From a virus, in the UHGV virus genome UHGV-1351068: a DNA stretch of 64,000 nucleotides; one strand, 5' to 3'. Made by a program: the position numbers and the translations under genes. Within the stretch, counting starts at the first letter, position 1, and each line of letters opens with the position of its first letter. Below are positions 26,607 to 31,482 of this stretch, in pieces. The notes under the pieces were generated by a model. It was not told the DNA's origin, searched no databases, and saw only the letters and a program-made list of their open reading frames with translations.

Positions 26607-26780
26607 TTACATTACATCGTATTCTTCAACTAGATACTGATAATAGGAATCGTTTGCTTCAAGTTCTTCCGCATATGATGTTGCTTCGGATTTAGTGTGA
26701 AAAATCTTAAGAGGCAAAGAATATTCTTCATAGCCATATTCACAGTTCCAGTTATTTTTTACTACAGCATATACTTTCAT
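26607..26780 (-). CDS. small acidic ORF (57 aa), not in the track
   Basis: MKVYAVVKNNWNCEYGYEEYSLPLKIFHTKSEATSYAEELEANDSYYQYLVEEYDVM. Confidence 0.35.
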   Translation of the reverse strand: MKVYAVVKNNWNCEYGYEEYSLPLKIFHTKSEATSYAEELEANDSYYQYLVEEYDVM

Positions 26781-26798: not shown

Positions 26799-26877
26799 TG
26801 GTATGGGTAGGAATCGAACCTACAAGCCATTCAGCACCAGGGCCTCACGCTCTACCTATTTGAGCTATCACATACCA
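26799..26877 (-). tRNA. tRNA-like element (degenerate/pseudo-tRNA?)
   Basis: Perfect D-arm (GCTCAAATAGGTAGAGC) and T-arm (GTAGGTTCGATTCCTAC) and a 7-bp terminal pairing, but no 5-bp/7-nt anticodon arm can be drawn in between. Confidence 0.4.
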
Positions 26878-26882
26878 GAATT

Positions 26883-26958
26883 TGGTGCCGGTTGACGGAA
26901 TCGAACCGCCGACCTTCTCATTACAAGTGAGTTGCTCTACCTACTGAGCTAAACCGGC
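26883..26958 (-). tRNA. tRNA-Thr (anticodon UGU), CCA encoded
   Basis: Reverse-complement GCCGGTTTAGCTCAGTAGGTAGAGCAACTCACTTGTAATGAGAAGGTCGGCGGTTCGATTCCGTCAACCGGCACCA folds as a cloverleaf; anticodon loop CTTGTAA. Confidence 0.85.
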
Positions 26959-27079
26959 ATATTTGGTGAAGAATTACCTACGTCACTAGGTTGGCTGTTC
27001 TGTCCACTTAAGGCTTGCAGCAGGAACACCATGGCTTTTCACCATTGATCCTCTCACGACTGAGACATTCTTCATAATT

Positions 27080-27164
27080 TGGTGCACCGAGAGGGATTCG
27101 AACCCTCAATCCCTGCGGCGTAGCATTTTAAGTGCTATGTGTATACCAGTTCCACCATCGATGC
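27080..27164 (-). tRNA. tRNA-Leu (anticodon UAA), type II
   Basis: GCATCGA...TAGCA-CTTAAAA-TGCTA; 13-nt variable arm; GAGGGTTCGAATCCCTC; TCGGTGC-A-CCA. Confidence 0.85.
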
Positions 27165-27168
27165 GAAA

Positions 27169-27245
27169 TGGTCGAGGCAGAAGGATTCGAACCTTCGACC
27201 TGCGGATTAGAAGTCCGCTGCTCTATCCAGCTGAGCTATGCCCCG
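27169..27245 (-). tRNA. tRNA-Arg (anticodon UCU)
   Basis: CGGGGCATAGCTCAGCTGGATAGAGCA-GCGGA-CTTCTAA-TCCGC-AGGTC-GAAGGTTCGAATCCTTC-TGCCTCG-A-CCA. Confidence 0.85.
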
Positions 27246-27249
27246 AGAG

Positions 27250-27376
27250 TGTTCAGGCAGGACTCGAACCTGCACGACTGATTCCGTCGGCGATTTACCA
27301 CCGTCGCCAGCATATGATGCAATATGCGAGCTCAAAAGGTGTCCGTCACCATGTCTACCGATTTCAACACTGAACA
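27250..27376 (-). ncRNA. about 126-nt tRNA-like/stable RNA candidate (T-arm plus 7-bp terminal pairing, no canonical cloverleaf)
   Basis: Ends tgttcag (27250-56) and ctgaaca (27370-76) are perfectly complementary; it contains GCAGGTTCGAGTCCTGC (a T-arm) and internal stem-loops (GGCGA/TCGCC, CGAC/GTCG). Confidence 0.35.
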
Positions 27377-27387
27377 AGATAATTATA

Positions 27388-27837
27388 TTACTGATTATTT
27401 ATAGCATTTCTTAAACGATAAAGTTGATTACAGAATTCGCGTTCAGTCAAAATCGTTTCAGAAATTTTATTTTTACCCATACTGTGAGTGAGTGTAGAAT
27501 TCCTGGTAGCAGCCAAAGCTCTTCTGAATCCTTCATTTTTACTAAGTGCATCGTATGCTCCTGTCAGTAAATTCTGATACGCTTCTGAAGCACGATGGAT
27601 TGGCACGCCTTTCCAATAAAGTGTTTGTGTTGGCCACCACCGTTTCTTTTTACCTTTGAACTTAGCCGATTTACCAACTAGTGTACATACATGTGCTTGC
27701 ATTTCAGGCGAAGAAAATTTGAGGGACTGCAAGAATCCCTCCATTGAGGCACATTCTACGCCATCATAGATAAATTTATGAGGAGCAAAGTTGCTCAAAG
27801 CACATGATGGATATGAACTACCTGAACCAATATCCAT
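27388..27837 (-). CDS. NADAR/YbiA-like (DUF1768) family protein (149 aa from the internal Met MDIGSGS)
   Basis: MDIGSGSSYPSCALSNFAPHKFIYDGVECASMEGFLQSLKF...WKGVPI: GSG...LSNF...F..DG..SxEHxxQ-type N-terminal signature of NADAR domains. Confidence 0.6.
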   Translation of the reverse strand: MDIGSGSSYPSCALSNFAPHKFIYDGVECASMEGFLQSLKFSSPEMQAHVCTLVGKSAKFKGKKKRWWPTQTLYWKGVPIHRASEAYQNLLTGAYDALSKNEGFRRALAATRNSTLTHSMGKNKISETILTEREFCNQLYRLRNAINNQ

Positions 27838-28394
27838 TACTTTTCCTTCACGTATTTCAACCAATCAACTTTTAACGGGCTTTCTTTTTGTTTATACGTA
27901 ATTCCAACATGGAATGCAACCGGGGCGTCAGGAATACGGATTTCTTCTTTAATGTCAAAGATTTCTACTTTCTCAAATACTCGCATGAAATCATAGTCAT
28001 ATTCAATTGGATTACCCAACCAAGCCTGAATAGCATACATAACTTCATTTGAACAAGAATAATGATCATCTAAATAAGCATCAAACTCTTCGTCTGAACA
28101 ATCATATGCAGGAACATCAACGCCAAAGAATTTCTTGGAAAATTCAGGAGTTACATACTTCTGTTCAGTATGAAGCTTTTCAAGAATTGCTTCATGGTTG
28201 TAATCATTATTTCCAAGGCATTCACAACGCCGACCACGAGAAGAGAACCATTCAAGAACGTGAATTACTTGATTAATCTCTTCTTTTTCTAAGCCATAAA
28301 CCATTTGGGTAGAATATCGGTCGGCATCATTTTCCCAAGTGGTAATTGCCATTGCTAAGCCTTTAGGAATAACTTGTCCAAATTTAACTTTCAT
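27837..28394 (-). CDS. hypothetical acidic protein (185 aa)
   Basis: ORF in the track. Confidence 0.55.
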   Translation of the reverse strand: MKVKFGQVIPKGLAMAITTWENDADRYSTQMVYGLEKEEINQVIHVLEWFSSRGRRCECLGNNDYNHEAILEKLHTEQKYVTPEFSKKFFGVDVPAYDCSDEEFDAYLDDHYSCSNEVMYAIQAWLGNPIEYDYDFMRVFEKVEIFDIKEEIRIPDAPVAFHVGITYKQKESPLKVDWLKYVKEK

Positions 28395-28590
28395 TATACA
28401 TTCCTCATATCTATTCGTTCTAAGGTATATTCTTTAAGAACAATCTGTTGACCACTTTTCAACAAGAATAATTGAATAGGATTTAATCCAAACCCGTGTT
28501 CTAAATCATGGTCAGTTAAATTTCTGTCGCAATAATTGAAATACATGTCAATTCTAACGAGAATGGTTTTCATAACTCCTCACACGAATT

Positions 28591-28667
28591 TGGTGACCCT
28601 GGCAAAGACTCGAACATGCAACCAATCCCTTATGAGGGGAACGCTCTACCAATTGAGCTACAGGGCC
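28591..28667 (-). tRNA. tRNA with anticodon CAU (Met or Ile2-like), solitary, with an imperfect T-stem
   Basis: GGCCCTG-TA-GCTCAATTGGTAGAGC-G-TTCCC-CTCATAA-GGGAT...GCATGTTCGAGTCTTTGC-CAGGGTC-A-CCA. Acceptor, D and anticodon arms are good; the T-stem has mismatches. Confidence 0.55.
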
Positions 28668-28744
28668 TTTATAGAAATCTTATGACTTTTATAAAAGCCC
28701 TCCGAAGAGGGCGCCTTGTCGGGCTATCCACCTGCTAGGCAGAA

Positions 28745-28969
28745 TTACTCACACATAAAATCAGCTACTTCCCAGAAGTCATTTTCAACTGCTACTTTAA
28801 CTACCGGAGAAATTTCAGATGTTTTAATAGAAACAATTACATCACCTGCGACAGTTTCTACCAGACCAACGATTTTCTCGCGGCGAGCAACAAATTTACT
28901 CACCGGATGGAATTTGCCGGTAGCAGCGAACATAGCTTCTTGGTCAACAATCAGTGCGATACGTTTCAT
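28745..28969 (-). CDS. hypothetical small protein (74 aa)
   Basis: ORF in the track. Confidence 0.45.
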   Translation of the reverse strand: MKRIALIVDQEAMFAATGKFHPVSKFVARREKIVGLVETVAGDVIVSIKTSEISPVVKVAVENDFWEVADFMCE

Positions 28970-29023
28970 TCTTTTTCCTTGTTTGTTTTGATGTAGTAAT
29001 AATAACAGGTTATTCTTGTAGCA

Positions 29024-29257
29024 TTAAATCTCGAAAATCGTTCCGTTTTCCCACATTGTTGCGAACATAGGAGAAACCTTAACGAATGATTTGCTTCGCA
29101 TTGCAACGTAGTCGTTATCTACTTTAGCCAATCCTGAAGCAATATCAGTAATACGGCCACACCTCATAGAACCACGACCACCTTTATTATATGTACGTTC
29201 TCCGTAGAAAACGATATCGCCAACTTGCACTTCTCGACCTTTAGAATCTTTCATCAT
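29024..29257 (-). CDS. hypothetical protein (track ORF trimmed to the internal Met)
   Basis: ORF in the track; start uncertain. Confidence 0.4.
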   Translation of the reverse strand: MMKDSKGREVQVGDIVFYGERTYNKGGRGSMRCGRITDIASGLAKVDNDYVAMRSKSFVKVSPMFATMWENGTIFEI

Positions 29258-29606
29258 ATTTTGCCTGCTGAATTCGTTTAAAATCGTTAACAAGTTCTTT
29301 TGGGTCTGACGCATTGTTAAATGGAAGAACTTGACGTAGTTTACTTATTTTACATCCGGTATGATAAGCAATAACTTCTTGAATATCACGTTCACTGAAG
29401 TACTCATATTTAATTAATGCTTCATATCTGCATTTAATCCAAACCCACATACCTTTGCGTTCATCAAAAGTGTATGCAAAATCAGCATGAAGCATTAAAT
29501 CACGTTCAGATTTACATAATCCTAAAGCAAAATTAGTTGGACGATTCCATTGTAATTTCACCGTAATAGCATTTACGCTATTTGCTACACCGATAAAGAT
29601 ATTCAT
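29241..29606 (-). CDS. hypothetical protein (121 aa)
   Basis: ORF in the track. Confidence 0.5.
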   Translation of the reverse strand: MNIFIGVANSVNAITVKLQWNRPTNFALGLCKSERDLMLHADFAYTFDERKGMWVWIKCRYEALIKYEYFSERDIQEVIAYHTGCKISKLRQVLPFNNASDPKELVNDFKRIQQAKYDERF

Positions 29607-29812
29607 TCTATTTCCTTCGCTTGATTTTGGTCTTCTTGTCGTGCACGAGAACGTCCTGCTTTATGCAGTGATTCGTAATATGCTCGACGTCTATCAATGT
29701 TTTCTGTACGATATGCTTTCCCGAAATGGGATGTTTTGAAGCCGTAGTATTTCATAATATAATTCTCAATGGCAAGTGATTGGACGGTATGCCCGGCCTC
29801 GAACCGAGTCAC
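29603..29812 (-). CDS. hypothetical small basic protein (69 aa)
   Basis: ORF in the track; its 5' end overlaps a tRNA-3'-half-like sequence (see findings). Confidence 0.4.
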   Translation of the reverse strand: MTRFEAGHTVQSLAIENYIMKYYGFKTSHFGKAYRTENIDRRRAYYESLHKAGRSRARQEDQNQAKEIE

Positions 29813-29930
29813 ACTGACTTTGCAGAATCCGTGTGTTTAATATATCACCCATACTCGATAGCATATCTGAACGAGACTGCAATCCCGCTACTCAGCTTAC
29901 ACCATCTTGTATTGTGTCATACCGATAATT

Positions 29931-30007
29931 TGGTCTCCATAGAATGACTCGAACATTCGACCTTTCCATCCCAAATGGAACGCTCTACCAGGCTGAGCTA
30001 TACGGAG
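29931..30007 (-). tRNA. tRNA-Pro (anticodon UGG)
   Basis: CTCCGTA-TA-GCTCAGCCTGGTAGAGC-G-TTCCA-TTTGGGA-TGGAA-AGGTC-GAATGTTCGAGTCATTC-TATGGAG-A-CCA. Confidence 0.85.
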
Positions 30008-30012
30008 TAATT

Positions 30013-30087
30013 TGGAGCATCCAGGGAGAATCGAACTCCCATCTTCTGGGTGGAAGCCAGACATAATATCCGCTATACGATGGATGC
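30013..30087 (-). tRNA. tRNA-Gly (anticodon UCC)
   Basis: GCATCCA...TCTGG-CTTCCAC-CCAGA...GGGAGTTCGATTCTCCC-TGGATGC-T-CCA. Confidence 0.85.
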
Positions 30088-30092
30088 AAATT

Positions 30093-30167
30093 TGGCAGGC
30101 CCTGAAGGAATCGAACCCTCATCACTGGGTTTGGAGCCCAGCATAATAGCCGTTATACTAAGAACCT
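30093..30167 (-). tRNA. tRNA-Trp (anticodon CCA)
   Basis: AGGTTCT...CTGGG-CTCCAAA-CCCAG...GAGGGTTCGATTCCTTC-AGGGCCT-G-CCA. The acceptor stem includes two G-U pairs. Confidence 0.7.
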
Positions 30168-30174
30168 GTTGTTT

Positions 30175-30250
30175 TGGTGCGAATACCTGGGCTCGAACCA
30201 GGGACCTACCGCTTATCGGGCGGTTGCTCTACCAACTGAGCTATATTCGC
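30175..30250 (-). tRNA. tRNA-Ile (anticodon GAU)
   Basis: GCGAATA-TA-GCTCAGTTGGTAGAGC-A-ACCGC-CCGATAA-GCGGT-AGGTC-CCTGGTTCGAGCCCAGG-TATTCGC-A-CCA. Confidence 0.85.
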
Positions 30251-30254
30251 GAAT

Positions 30255-30339
30255 TGGCGGAGAGTAAAGGAGTTGAACCCTCACCGTTTCCGATGGCCCG
30301 GATTTCAAGTCCGGTTTGCTACCACTAGCGCTACTCTCC
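30255..30339 (-). tRNA. tRNA-Ser (anticodon UGA), type II
   Basis: GGAGAGT...CCGGA-CTTGAAA-TCCGG, long variable arm, ...ACTCTCC-G-CCA. Confidence 0.85.
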
Positions 30340-30344
30340 AATGT

Positions 30345-30420
30345 TGGGGTGGCCGGCGGAATTCGAATCCGCGACATCGAGGATCACAACCTCGGGTTCT
30401 ACCAACTGAACTACGACCAC
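30345..30420 (-). tRNA. tRNA-His (anticodon GUG)
   Basis: GTGGTCG-TA-GTTCAGTTGGTAGAAC-C-CGAGG-TTGTGAT-CCTCG-ATGTC-GCGGATTCGAATTCCGC-CGGCCAC-C-CCA. Confidence 0.85.
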
Positions 30421-30515
30421 ATCAATATTCACTCCATCCATCATGAGGACTTCATACGGTAGCTAAAGCAGGTTCATGACTTCTGCCTACACATCGTGTT
30501 GAATGAATATTAATT

Positions 30516-30590
30516 TGGCTGAACCACCTGGACTCGAACCAGGGATCGTAGGATCAAAACCTACTGCCTTACCAACTTGGCTATGATTCA
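30516..30590 (-). tRNA. tRNA-Gln (anticodon UUG)
   Basis: TGAATCA-TA-GCC-AAGTTGGTAA-GGC-A-GTAGG-TTTTGAT-CCTAC-GATC-CCTGGTTCGAGTCCAGG-TGGTTCA-G-CCA. Confidence 0.8.
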
Positions 30591-30596
30591 ATTGTT

Positions 30597-30672
30597 TGGA
30601 GGCGGAGGCAGGATTCGAACCTGCGCGTGTCGGGATATGAGCCCAACATTCTACCAACTGAAGTTACCCCGC
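30597..30672 (-). tRNA. tRNA-Met-like (anticodon CAU); acceptor stem does not pair as read, so a possible pseudo- or chimeric tRNA
   Basis: D-arm, anticodon arm (TTGGG-CTCATAT-CCCGA) and T-arm (GCAGGTTCGAATCCTGC) are good, but 5' GCGGGGT cannot pair with 3' CTCCGCC. Confidence 0.45.
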
Positions 30673-30834
30673 ATTTATCCGGGTTCTTGAAGTACTAACA
30701 AGTAGCTTGATGTAGAACACGCTAAAGATATAATCTTACGAATATAGAGCTTATTCCGTGGGAACAAACAGCTTCGTCCTCGGCATTATCTTATAGGACT
30801 CAAACTCATCTTCAAGAACTGCCACGTTCTTATT

Positions 30835-30910
30835 TGGCGGACCTAACGGAATTCGAATCCGTGACTCTCGCGTGACAGGCGAGTATTTTAACCGCTGAAA
30901 CTATAGGTCC
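30835..30910 (-). tRNA. tRNA-Asp (anticodon GUC)
   Basis: GGACCTA-TA-GTTTCAGCGGTTAAAAT-A-CTCGC-CTGTCAC-GCGAG-AGTC-ACGGATTCGAATTCCGT-TAGGTCC-G-CCA. Confidence 0.85.
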
Positions 30911-31140
30911 ATAATTCGCTTTCAGAGATACTCTGGCACGATGCCGAAGCAAAGGGGAACAGGACTCTCATCACCTTGGTACCAGATGAATCTTGTTTAG
31001 CACTCTGTTCTAAGATGTATCCCTGAAAGCGAACTTTCAACGCCGTAAGAAATTATAAGCACGTAGTTATCGTTGAGGGAACTCGTACACAGGGAATTCT
31101 ATGCCGACGATTTATCAGAACGTCTTCTGACTTCTTCATT

Positions 31141-31225
31141 TGGCGGGCCGTGCAGGTATCGAACCTGCCTAGTCATTTCTGACACGGATTAACAGTCCGT
31201 CGCTTACCCTCTCAGCCAACGACCC
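31141..31225 (-). tRNA. type-II (long variable arm) tRNA with anticodon GUU (Asn?); unusual
   Basis: GGGTCGT-TG-GCT-GAGAGGGTA-AGC-G-ACGGA-CTGTTAA-TCCGT-GTCAGAAATGACTAG-GCAGGTTCGATACCTGC-ACGGCCC-G-CCA. The 15-nt variable arm forms a stem GTCA/TGAC; this is Tyr/Ser-like architecture but the anticodon is GUU. Confidence 0.6.
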
Positions 31226-31230
31226 GAATT

Positions 31231-31307
31231 TGGTGGGACACCGAAGACTCGAACTTCGGACACCCGGATTAAAAGTCCGGTGCTCTAACCAACTGAGCTA
31301 GTATCCC
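31231..31307 (-). tRNA. tRNA-Lys (anticodon UUU)
   Basis: GGGATAC-TA-GCTCAGTTGGTTAGAGC-A-CCGGA-CTTTTAA-TCCGG-GTGTC-CGAAGTTCGAGTCTTCG-GTGTCCC-A-CCA. Confidence 0.85.
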
Positions 31308-31313
31308 TAAATT

Positions 31314-31400
31314 TGGTGGGGAGTAATGGAGTCGAACCACTCGAGCCTTTTGAGCAACAGATTTACAGTCTGTCCCGCTACCCCTACGGTCTAACTCCCC
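31314..31400 (-). tRNA. tRNA-Tyr (anticodon GUA), type II
   Basis: GGGGAGT...ACAGA-CTGTAAA-TCTGT, long variable arm, GTGGTTCGACTCCAT-TACTCCCC-A-CCA. Confidence 0.85.
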
Positions 31401-31412
31401 AATGGGTAATTT

Positions 31413-31420
31413 TATTTATA
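31413..31420 (-). promoter_or_regulatory. T4 late-promoter -10 box (TATAAATA on the minus strand) 13 nt upstream of the tRNA array
   Basis: Plus strand tatttata at 31413-31420. Confidence 0.45.
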
Positions 31421-31482
31421 CTGCCCTGAAATTAATAAGAGCAGTTGATAGATTAATAATAACAAAGAAAACCTAAAGCATA

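Follow-up and report, generated by a model that had tools for sequence, protein, structure and literature searches.

Predicted structured RNA families within the tRNA operon of a Jiaodavirus-type phage

The window analysed here is a 64-kb stretch of viral DNA (UHGV virus genome UHGV-1351068, 64,000 nucleotides), which carries an array of transfer RNA (tRNA) genes on its minus strand. Sequence comparison identifies the region as belonging to a JD18-like, T4-type Klebsiella phage of the genus Jiaodavirus, whose tRNA operon it represents. The main new result is that this is a mixed operon, in which the tRNAs are accompanied by at least five conserved families of structured RNA, designated S1, S2, S7, TL80 and TL128; the tRNA array itself adds nothing new. 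We consider it probable that the operon is assembled from modular tRNAs and conserved structured RNAs and that it provides codon supply plus counter-defence. Unless a strand is named, all window coordinates below are on the minus strand.

Structured RNAs between the tRNA genes

In the direction of transcription, the array reads Tyr-GUA, Lys-UUU, Asn-GUU, a spacer of 230 nt, Asp-GUC, a spacer of 161 nt, a tRNA with the anticodon CAU, Gln-UUG, a spacer of 95 nt and His-GUG, after which Ser-UGA, Ile-GAU, Trp-CCA, Gly-UCC and Pro-UGG follow. Four small open reading frames (ORFs) and a terminator-like hairpin come next, then a second CAU tRNA, three further ORFs, the 128-nt tRNA-like element TL128, Arg-UCU, Leu-UAA, a spacer of 121 nt, Thr-UGU and the 80-nt tRNA-like element TL80. 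Every one of the spacers folds with its 5' and 3' ends paired.

The strongest signs of a maintained structure were found in S2 and S7. S2 (30674–30825) has a terminal helix of 12 pairs and four more predicted helices, and 12 of its 28 predicted pairs have changed on both sides. In the alignment, 98.4% of cells were paired, compared with 30–51% when the partners were slid, and none of 500 shuffles reached the observed number of paired cells, the number of two-sided changes or the covariation score. Its covariance model (R1) scored 99–141 bits in 11 loci, and S2 was present in Jiaodavirus, Karamvirus, Moonvirus and Marfavirus loci and, by BLAST, in 207 phage records. S7 (26962–27076) consists of five helices arranged about a junction and is closed by a terminal helix of 8 bp; 15 of its 34 pairs have changed on both sides, and 94.1% of cells were paired against 36–50% in slid controls. 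It occurs in 117 phage records, among them N4-like podoviruses/Schitoviridae (P184, Kc283), Ackermannviridae (KpS110) and Aeromonas T4-like phages, and it sits between tRNA genes in all four fetched loci that have tRNA annotation. Both RNAs contain long invariant internal loops and junctions.

The Asn-Asp spacer holds S1 (30911–31140), which folds into two closed domains (z = -3.6 for the fold of the whole spacer); between Jiaodavirus and Karamvirus, 15 of its 58 pairs show compensatory changes. The first domain, S1a (31039–31131), is about 78% conserved in Karamvirus and shows compensatory pairs, while the second, S1b (30913–31035), is closed by a helix of 18–19 bp in which pairs have changed on both sides in Karamvirus. 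S1b and S2 share the motifs GAUGAG, GUCC and GUUCCC in the same order and may be distant paralogues, although the S2 covariance model gave no match to S1b at E-values up to 1. S3 (30421–30515, fold z = -2.35) conserves a 14-bp terminal helix around a variable interior, and this helix, with a few compensatory changes, persists in five loci. S4 (29813–29930, fold z = -2.4), which follows tRNA-Pro and leads into the ORF block, is structured and was found only in Jiaodavirus, at 98–99% identity, where the copies are too alike for a covariation test.

TL80 (26799–26876) is normal in its acceptor, D and T arms, but carries a loop of 12 nt where the anticodon loop would be and does not encode CCA. 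It was found in 85 phage records, with the N4-like phages ECBP1 and PBM-2, the jumbo phage RaK2 and the Yersinia T4-like phage TG1 as examples. In a comparison of four phage lineages (N4-like, jumbo and two T4-like), the core did not vary, and full compensation was seen in the acceptor and T stems. Like S7, it is common to several phage families at 85–90% identity. The annotation of TL80 has been various, including Gln, Cys, Thr, pseudo and undetermined, and in the fetched stretches of ECBP1 and PBM-2 it is the only annotated tRNA-type gene.

TL128 (27249–27376) has an acceptor stem of 7 bp, a T arm and a D arm like that of tRNA-Leu, and its acceptor, D and T portions as a whole are similar to a tRNA-Leu; a multi-hairpin centre replaces the anticodon arm, and TL128 too lacks an encoded CCA. 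It was not detected by the Rfam tRNA model RF00005. Its position is immediately upstream of tRNA-Arg in Jiaodavirus, Marfavirus and the Karamvirus phage Pet-CM3-4, and in myPSH1140 (locus L008) a tRNA-Cys stands between the two. The central domain exists in three versions, with anticodon-like loops that are not the same from version to version (UUGCAUC, UUGAAUC, UUGGUAC and UUUAAGC); the loop of version A has 6 nt, so it is not a canonical 7-nt anticodon loop. When the sequences were compared by eye, four of the five pairs of the central hairpin were compensated, and the T stem was compensated as well. A single consensus structure for TL128 was tried and given up, because the three central versions do not align, and RNAalifold returned the acceptor and T arms only. 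Two IMG/VR contigs of 74 and 162 kb, apparently not T4-like (L011 and L022), carry a short tRNA-like element adjoining a normal tRNA, with the same tRNA-Leu-type D arm and T arm and without an anticodon arm.

A first-pass annotation of this DNA had described the array as partly decayed, in which case the tRNA-like elements would be dying tRNA pseudogenes and the gaps non-functional leftovers. TL80 does score below the Rfam tRNA cut-off (20.5 against 29 bits), both TL80 and TL128 are without a 7-nt anticodon loop and an encoded CCA, GenBank pipelines label them as pseudo, undetermined or inconsistent tRNAs, and modules appear and vanish between close relatives. Against this, the tRNA-like elements and most of the gaps are conserved across genera, and S7 and TL80 across families. 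The compensated stems around the invariant core of TL80, the compensated hairpins of TL128 and its retention near tRNA-Arg in three genera, and the 12, 15 and 15 compensatory pairs of S2, S7 and S1, exceeding slid and shuffled controls, all describe pairing that has been maintained through two-sided changes. This is not expected of pseudogenes, and the idea of decay is therefore largely refuted; we regard it as very unlikely. Because they are conserved with compensatory base-pair changes, S1, S2, S7, TL80 and TL128 are best explained as at least five structured RNA families under selection for structure, and not as decay products.

It could also be proposed that the spacers encode small proteins, as several GenBank records imply by placing a "hypothetical protein" over S2 and S7, and ORFs of 30–33 aa do overlap both. 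However, S2 homologues range from 115 to 169 nt with length differences that are not multiples of three, the substitutions pair across helices instead of falling at third codon positions, and the overlapping ORFs start with TTG or GTG, those over S7 also overlapping tRNA-Leu. A coding role for the spacers is, in our opinion, barely credible.

Another possibility is that the non-tRNA modules are only processing or insulating devices without a role as free RNAs. Closed helices could serve as sites for RNase P, RNase III or RNase E and could prevent misfolding of neighbours, as with plant mitochondrial t-elements. The paired ends of every spacer fold, the conservation of the terminal helix only in S3, the 18–19 bp helix of S1b, and the location of TL80 between tRNA-Thr and the ribosome-binding site of the next ORF would all suit such devices, and the Leu-Thr junction works without a spacer in AM_K2 and Karamvirus. 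On the other hand, the long invariant internal loops and junctions of S2 and S7 exceed what a cutting site needs, TL80 has no annotated tRNA neighbours to insulate in the fetched stretches of ECBP1 and PBM-2, and S7 and TL80 retain their 85–90% identity across phage families. A purely processing role is rather unlikely on this balance, and we prefer to regard the modules as RNAs released in their own right.

S1, S2, S3, S7, TL80 and TL128 matched no Rfam 15 family at gathering scores, and at E-values up to 10 there were chance-level matches (MIR173, YrlA) and the sub-threshold tRNA match on TL80, and nothing else. TL80 and TL128 resemble bacterial YrlA, a Y RNA-like RNA, and plant mitochondrial t-elements in keeping acceptor, D and T parts without a decoding anticodon loop. 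They differ from YrlA in that the window matches are sub-threshold (19.6–23.3 bits against a cut-off of 69) and fall on tRNA T-arm regions, and in that TL80 and TL128 have no Ro-binding helix, their 5' and 3' ends forming the acceptor stem itself. A literature search, which was incomplete and so is no proof of novelty, found no description of the spacer RNAs. The spacer and tRNA-like RNA families are therefore probably undescribed.

The tRNA set, codon use and defence nucleases

The 64-kb window was searched with ARAGORN and, independently, with Rfam RF00005 at the curated gathering threshold of 29 bits. Both recovered the same 16 tRNAs, one-to-one, all on the minus strand between 26883 and 31400 and with RF00005 scores of 32.3–72.5 bits; neither found a tRNA elsewhere in the window. 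This bears out the earlier count of at least 15 canonical minus-strand tRNAs, whose list had omitted one of the two CAU tRNAs and was right about the other identities, and the number is neither below about ten nor the T4 set of eight alone. All 16 have a 7-nt anticodon loop with U33 and a readable anticodon, and all encode CCA, followed by AA or UU (AAU or AAA in 15 of them and UUU in tRNA-Arg).

The individual genes, each called by both programs, are tRNA-Tyr (31314–31400; long variable arm, CCA encoded and supported by its fold, Rfam 33.6 bits), tRNA-Lys (31231–31307; UCCGG as the 3' strand of the anticodon stem), tRNA-Asn (31141–31225), tRNA-Asp (30835–30910), an initiator-like CAU tRNA (30597–30673), tRNA-Gln (30516–30590), tRNA-His (30345–30420) and a tight block of Ser, Ile, Trp, Gly and Pro 4–7 nt apart (29931–30339). 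The other CAU tRNA stands at 28591–28667, followed by tRNA-Arg (27169–27245), tRNA-Leu (27080–27164) and tRNA-Thr (26883–26958), the last 91% identical to its T4 counterpart. Apart from the eight T4 anticodons, the set contains Tyr, Lys, Asn, Asp, His, Trp, Ile-GAU and the initiator-like CAU. Four of the 16, namely Asn, His, Lys and the initiator-like tRNA, have acceptor stems that covary among relatives.

The two CAU tRNAs are of different kinds. The one at 28591–28667 is the orthologue of T4 tRNA-Ile (81% identity), a reader of AUA of the Ile2 type, and is annotated as tRNA-Ile in K65PH164. The one at 30597–30673 was aligned directly to E. coli metZ and metT, after a BLAST search of E. coli genomes had given two weak matches only. 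It has a U1xC72 mismatch, acceptor bases 2–7 (GCGGGG) that are the same as in metZ, and an anticodon stem with a run of three G-C pairs (GGG/CCC), and both the 1:72 mismatch and the three G-C pairs are kept in Karamvirus and Moonvirus orthologues. E. coli tRNA-fMet also has A11:U24 in the D stem and A73. These are absent from the window tRNA, which has an irregular D arm (C11xA24 or one extra base) and U at both position 73 and position 38. Because of the irregular D arm and U73, we call it initiator-like only.

The tRNA-Asn is unusual in its length of 85 nt. Its variable region forms a stem-loop of its own, GUCA-GAAA-UGAC, as in class II tRNAs, with G73 and the encoded CCA. This arm is kept with a compensatory A-U to G-C change and a length that varies from 3 to 4 bp in Marfavirus, Moonvirus, locus L016 and the T5-like phage SP15; acceptor stem and variable arm covary among T4-like relatives, and the family is present in 621 phage records, T5-like phages included. 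Mischarging by SerRS was considered in view of the long arm and G73 and was downgraded, since the anticodon arm is that of a normal tRNA-Asn and the tRNA family is widespread, and further because the related T5 tRNA-Asn helps to restore growth and infection under the PARIS defence system. Extra-long versions of usually short tRNAs seem to be common in T4-like phages: Karamvirus arrays contain an 85-nt tRNA-Cys (GCA), far above the normal Cys length (L008 9550–9634; L009 10076–10160; L025 960–1044), and Aeromonas phage records annotate Arg, Phe and Asn tRNAs of 83–86 nt. In the Arg-Cys-Leu-X block of L009, L019 and L027, the last tRNA (L009 10253–10328) is Tyr (GUA) by ARAGORN and Thr in GenBank, a disagreement that may come from a one-base shift in reading the anticodon loop.

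A benefit in decoding could explain most of the set. Codon use was compared between 91 window ORFs (18,333 codons) and 35 E. coli K-12 genes (12,129 codons) that served as a proxy for the host. Relative to this proxy, the A-ending cognate codons of the eight T4-type tRNAs are enriched 1.7–9.3-fold in the phage (AGA 9.3, UCA 5.0, AUA 4.1). The four most enriched amino acids, each with a phage tRNA, are Asn (1.62), Tyr (1.51), Trp (1.45) and Lys (1.36), and the median phage/host ratio was 1.65 for tRNA-covered codons against 0.76 for uncovered ones (Mann-Whitney p = 7e-4). Compensation for codon or amino-acid use is thus supported for about 12 of the 16 tRNAs. The codon-usage adaptation suggested by the first-pass annotation holds for the eight T4-type tRNAs and for Asn, Tyr, Trp and Lys, and fails for His, Asp, Met and Ile-GAU, whose codons are not enriched against the proxy.

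Defence nucleases offer a further reason to carry tRNAs. The PARIS nuclease AriB cleaves the E. coli tRNAs Lys(UUU) and Thr(UGU) and, less strongly, Asn(GUU), and the T5 versions of these three together neutralise PARIS (PMC12409363). The window encodes all three isoacceptors of this target set. Its tRNA-Lys has C41 at the AriB site, where E. coli has A41 (PMC12409363), and keeps U39; C41 is Mut2, one of two protective changes in the same study. Its tRNA-Thr has G40 at the cleavage site, compared with C40 in E. coli thrU. In addition, phage Tyr and Lys tRNAs have been shown to rescue infection from retron-Eco7 and PrrC (PMC11555353), and a general model of nuclease-resistant phage tRNAs has been published (PMC10264068). 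By analogy, the array tRNAs could sustain translation while the tRNAs of the host are being cut by its defence nucleases.

These observations could be taken further, with counter-defence as the main function of the array and the codon match as secondary, the tRNAs replacing or outnumbering host tRNAs cut by PARIS, PrrC, retron-Eco7 and VapC-type nucleases. The complete PARIS target set, the rescue by Tyr and Lys tRNAs, the substitutions at the AriB site in Lys and Thr, and the published model agree with this, and so do the His, Asp, initiator-like and Ile-GAU tRNAs that codon use does not account for. However, the eight T4-type tRNAs closely track the codons most enriched in the phage, which is not predicted by counter-defence, the cleavage-site bases of tRNA-Asn are the same as those of the host, and nuclease action on the window tRNAs is only inferred. 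The predominance of counter-defence is a possible explanation towards which we do not lean, and codon supply together with counter-defence is preferred.

Transcription, neighbouring ORFs and related arrays

The T4 late-promoter consensus TATAAATA is present at 31413–31420, 12 nt upstream of tRNA-Tyr, as had been noted before, and is read here as a motif match. It is kept in four Jiaodavirus loci and is absent from the corresponding site in T4 and Karamvirus. A second TATAAATA lies at 27396–27403, 20 nt upstream of TL128 and ahead of the TL128-Arg-Leu-Thr block. The motif occurs 16 times in the window against 5.4 +/- 2.2 expected, an over-representation of about three times. On the plus strand, the copies are concentrated between 35.8 and 62.9 kb, as would fit a role as T4-type late promoters for late genes in that part.

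Further upstream, a MotA-box-like TGCTTTA (31474–31480) is followed after 12 nt by TATTAT (31456–31461). TGCTTTA-N12-TATTAT has the form of a T4 MotA-dependent middle promoter, judged by the MotA consensus of T4. The stretch upstream of the first tRNA of T4 resembles this putative middle promoter region (77% over 52 nt). A terminator-like hairpin in the predicted fold, GCCCTCTTCGGAGGGC followed by a T run, lies at 28697–28712, upstream of the solo CAU tRNA.

Between tRNA-Pro and this hairpin are four small ORFs of 69, 121, 76 and 74 aa (28745–29812), which have no Pfam family and are hypothetical proteins in relatives. The three ORFs after the solo CAU tRNA encode 59, 185 and 149 aa (27388–28573), and the last (27388–27837) is a member of the T4 gp30.3 family (Pfam PF08010, E = 2e-55). 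Ten ORFs including this one were tested, and the other six within the array and three flanking ones gave no Pfam family above threshold. A 57-aa ORF (26607–26780) lies beyond TL80.

Klebsiella phage RCIP0102 matches the region of about 5 kb at 98.6% identity, and in 129 phage records 80% or more of the array region is covered. The relatives are classified in Straboviridae, Tevenvirinae, Jiaodavirus. The same 16 tRNAs are already annotated in GenBank for RCIP0102, K65PH164 and AM_K2, Jiaodavirus genomes have been announced with 15–16 tRNA genes (PMC11636391), and a 2017 study described Serratia T4-like phages that have 16–17 tRNAs, "almost twice the number of T4 and CC31" (PMC5449768). The array is therefore ordinary for its genus and the expanded tRNA set is already known. 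The expansion over T4 that the first-pass annotation had claimed is real, with all eight T4 anticodons plus eight more, whereas the novelty it implied is not, such arrays being widely annotated and published (PMC11636391; PMC5449768).

The array shares with the T4 cluster its genome position downstream of genes 1, 57A and 57B, according to the annotation of their homologues in the near-identical loci of JD18 and K65PH164 and in CC31, and to the T4 map. All eight T4 isoacceptors (UCU, CAU-Ile, UGU, UGA, UGG, UCC, UAA, UUG) are in the window at 76–91% identity, and in both cases ORFs interrupt the array and non-tRNA RNAs are co-located with the tRNAs, in T4 the stable RNAs rnaC (itself tRNA-like) and rnaD. 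The T4 order, Gln, Leu, Gly, Pro, Ser, Thr, Ile, segB, Arg, rnaD, rnaC, is different, as had been stated, and the window has twice as many tRNAs. CCA is missing in four of the eight T4 tRNA genes, compared with none in the window, and in place of segB homing endonuclease and rnaC/rnaD the window has no segB and five or more other RNA families. A homology of the spacers to rnaC or rnaD was considered and ruled out: BLAST gave T-arm-sized matches only between rnaC/rnaD and the window, and the covariance models of S2 (R1) and S7 (R2) found nothing in the T4 region. The structured RNAs of the window would thus resemble T4 species 1 and 2 RNAs in kind, not in sequence. In the Cronobacter phage Pet-CM3-4 (Karamvirus), a 96-nt "tRNA-Phe" called by ARAGORN (L009 6602–6697) shows clear homology to T4 species 1 RNA (rnaC), over the 3' two-thirds of the latter, and RNAs of the rnaC type persist in Karamvirus, not in this window.

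The comparison extended to other Tevenvirinae whose hosts are Enterobacteriaceae other than E. coli: the Jiaodavirus group with JD18, the Karamvirus group with CC31, Pet-CM3-4 and myPSH1140, the Moonvirus phage CF1 and the Marfavirus phage PhiKpNIH-6. JD18 and AM_K2 have the 16 identical tRNA types in identical order and differ in having no S7 and no TL80. Karamvirus has S1, S2 and TL128 in common with the window and adds Glu, Phe and Cys tRNAs and the rnaC homologue, while Marfavirus shares S2 and TL128. The Serratia phages CHI14, X20 and CBH8 resemble the window in having 16–17 tRNAs in a region that can be deleted (PMC5449768). The tRNA-rich region of T5-like phages, from which tRNAs counteract PARIS, retron-Eco7 and PrrC, has the long-variable-arm tRNA-Asn family (about 79–80% identity and the same acceptor stem in the SP15 alignment), and its Lys-UUU, Thr-UGU, Asn-GUU and Tyr-GUA are all in the window, although phage family and array organisation are unrelated.

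Gain and loss of modules between close relatives, which had also been proposed earlier, is real. Related loci at the same genome position hold 7 to 19 tRNAs, and the Leu-Thr junction has three alleles: 1 nt in AM_K2 and Karamvirus, S7 in this window, K65PH164 and Marfavirus (97.5% identity), and another tRNA-like element of 100 nt in JD18 and two viral contigs. Accordingly, S7 is not at this junction in JD18, AM_K2 and Karamvirus. The third allele (JD18, L007 9083–9182; also L012 and L015) has a T arm and paired ends. TL80 and the 57-aa ORF form one insertion/deletion unit with AATTC on its flanks. Klebsiella phages of the 15882 series are near-identical, with an array about 700 nt longer and an annotated homing endonuclease, comparable to segB in the T4 tRNA region. 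In the Serratia relatives, the tRNA region is lost through deletions between short direct repeats with viable progeny, and its deletion leads to escape from the abortive-infection system ToxIN at a fitness cost (PMC5449768).

A working model and its meaning

The proposed operon would consist of three blocks of short modules: Tyr to Pro, the solo Ile2-type tRNA, and TL128-Arg-Leu-S7-Thr-TL80. Going by the motifs, a MotA-type middle promoter and two late promoters probably drive transcription of the blocks, and host RNase P, RNase E and 3' trimming enzymes would be expected to cut the transcript into single RNAs. S1, S2, S7, TL80 and TL128 could be released from the same transcripts as the tRNAs, like T4 species 1 and 2 RNAs. 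The tRNAs would add decoding capacity for codons and amino acids used far more by the phage, at 40% G+C, than by its host (about 12 of the 16), and may sustain translation under host tRNA cleavage, through the PARIS trio and through Tyr and Lys as targets of retron-Eco7 and PrrC.

Several points weigh against this model. A generic sigma-70 scan showed no excess of promoters (14 against 15.0 expected from shuffles), the covariation alignments comprise 5–12 sequences from few clades, and the host reference for codon use was the E. coli K-12 proxy, not Klebsiella. With ratios against this proxy of 0.87 for His, 1.10 for Asp, 1.07 for Met and 1.04 for Ile (AUU/AUC), the codon reasoning fails for these tRNAs. 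Two of them might also be poorly charged, namely the initiator-like tRNA, with its odd D arm and U73, and tRNA-His. G-1 is normally required by E. coli (bacterial) HisRS, and it is not encoded in the phage tRNA-His of seven out of seven loci (window, L002, L007, L008, L009, L010, L016), all of which have U at position -1 with C73. The cleavage-site bases of tRNA-Asn equal the E. coli sequence in PMC12409363, and PARIS resistance is therefore unreadable from sequence. Finally, the viability of Serratia progeny after deletion of the tRNA region suggests, by analogy, that any benefit is conditional.

A more speculative idea is that TL80, TL128, S2, S7 and S1 are mobile RNA cassettes, exchanged among phage families within tRNA arrays and possibly acting on host immunity, where they might be decoys or inhibitors of tRNA-targeting nucleases or RNA signals sensed by abortive-infection systems. 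The occurrence of TL80 and S7 across families at high identity, with presence varying between close relatives, fits this without showing it, and so does the release of Serratia phages from ToxIN by deletion of the tRNA region. We consider the idea improbable as it stands. If true, it would amount to an RNA-based layer of the phage-host arms race and would answer what T4 species 1 and 2 RNAs are for.

For the preferred reading, a mixed operon for codon supply and counter-defence, the full PARIS target trio together with the Tyr and Lys tRNAs is relevant to host-range prediction for phage-therapy candidates. About 0.8 kb of the array, now unannotated or mislabelled as pseudo-tRNA or hypothetical protein, would represent at least five structured RNA families, well supported by covariation and without an Rfam entry, and the three that were searched by record (S2, S7 and TL80) occur in 85–207 phage records each. 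To our knowledge, the role of T4 species 1 and 2 RNAs is still unknown. The structured families described here would be concrete new examples of the kind of RNA that these two represent, and they could easily be tested in therapeutic Klebsiella phages.

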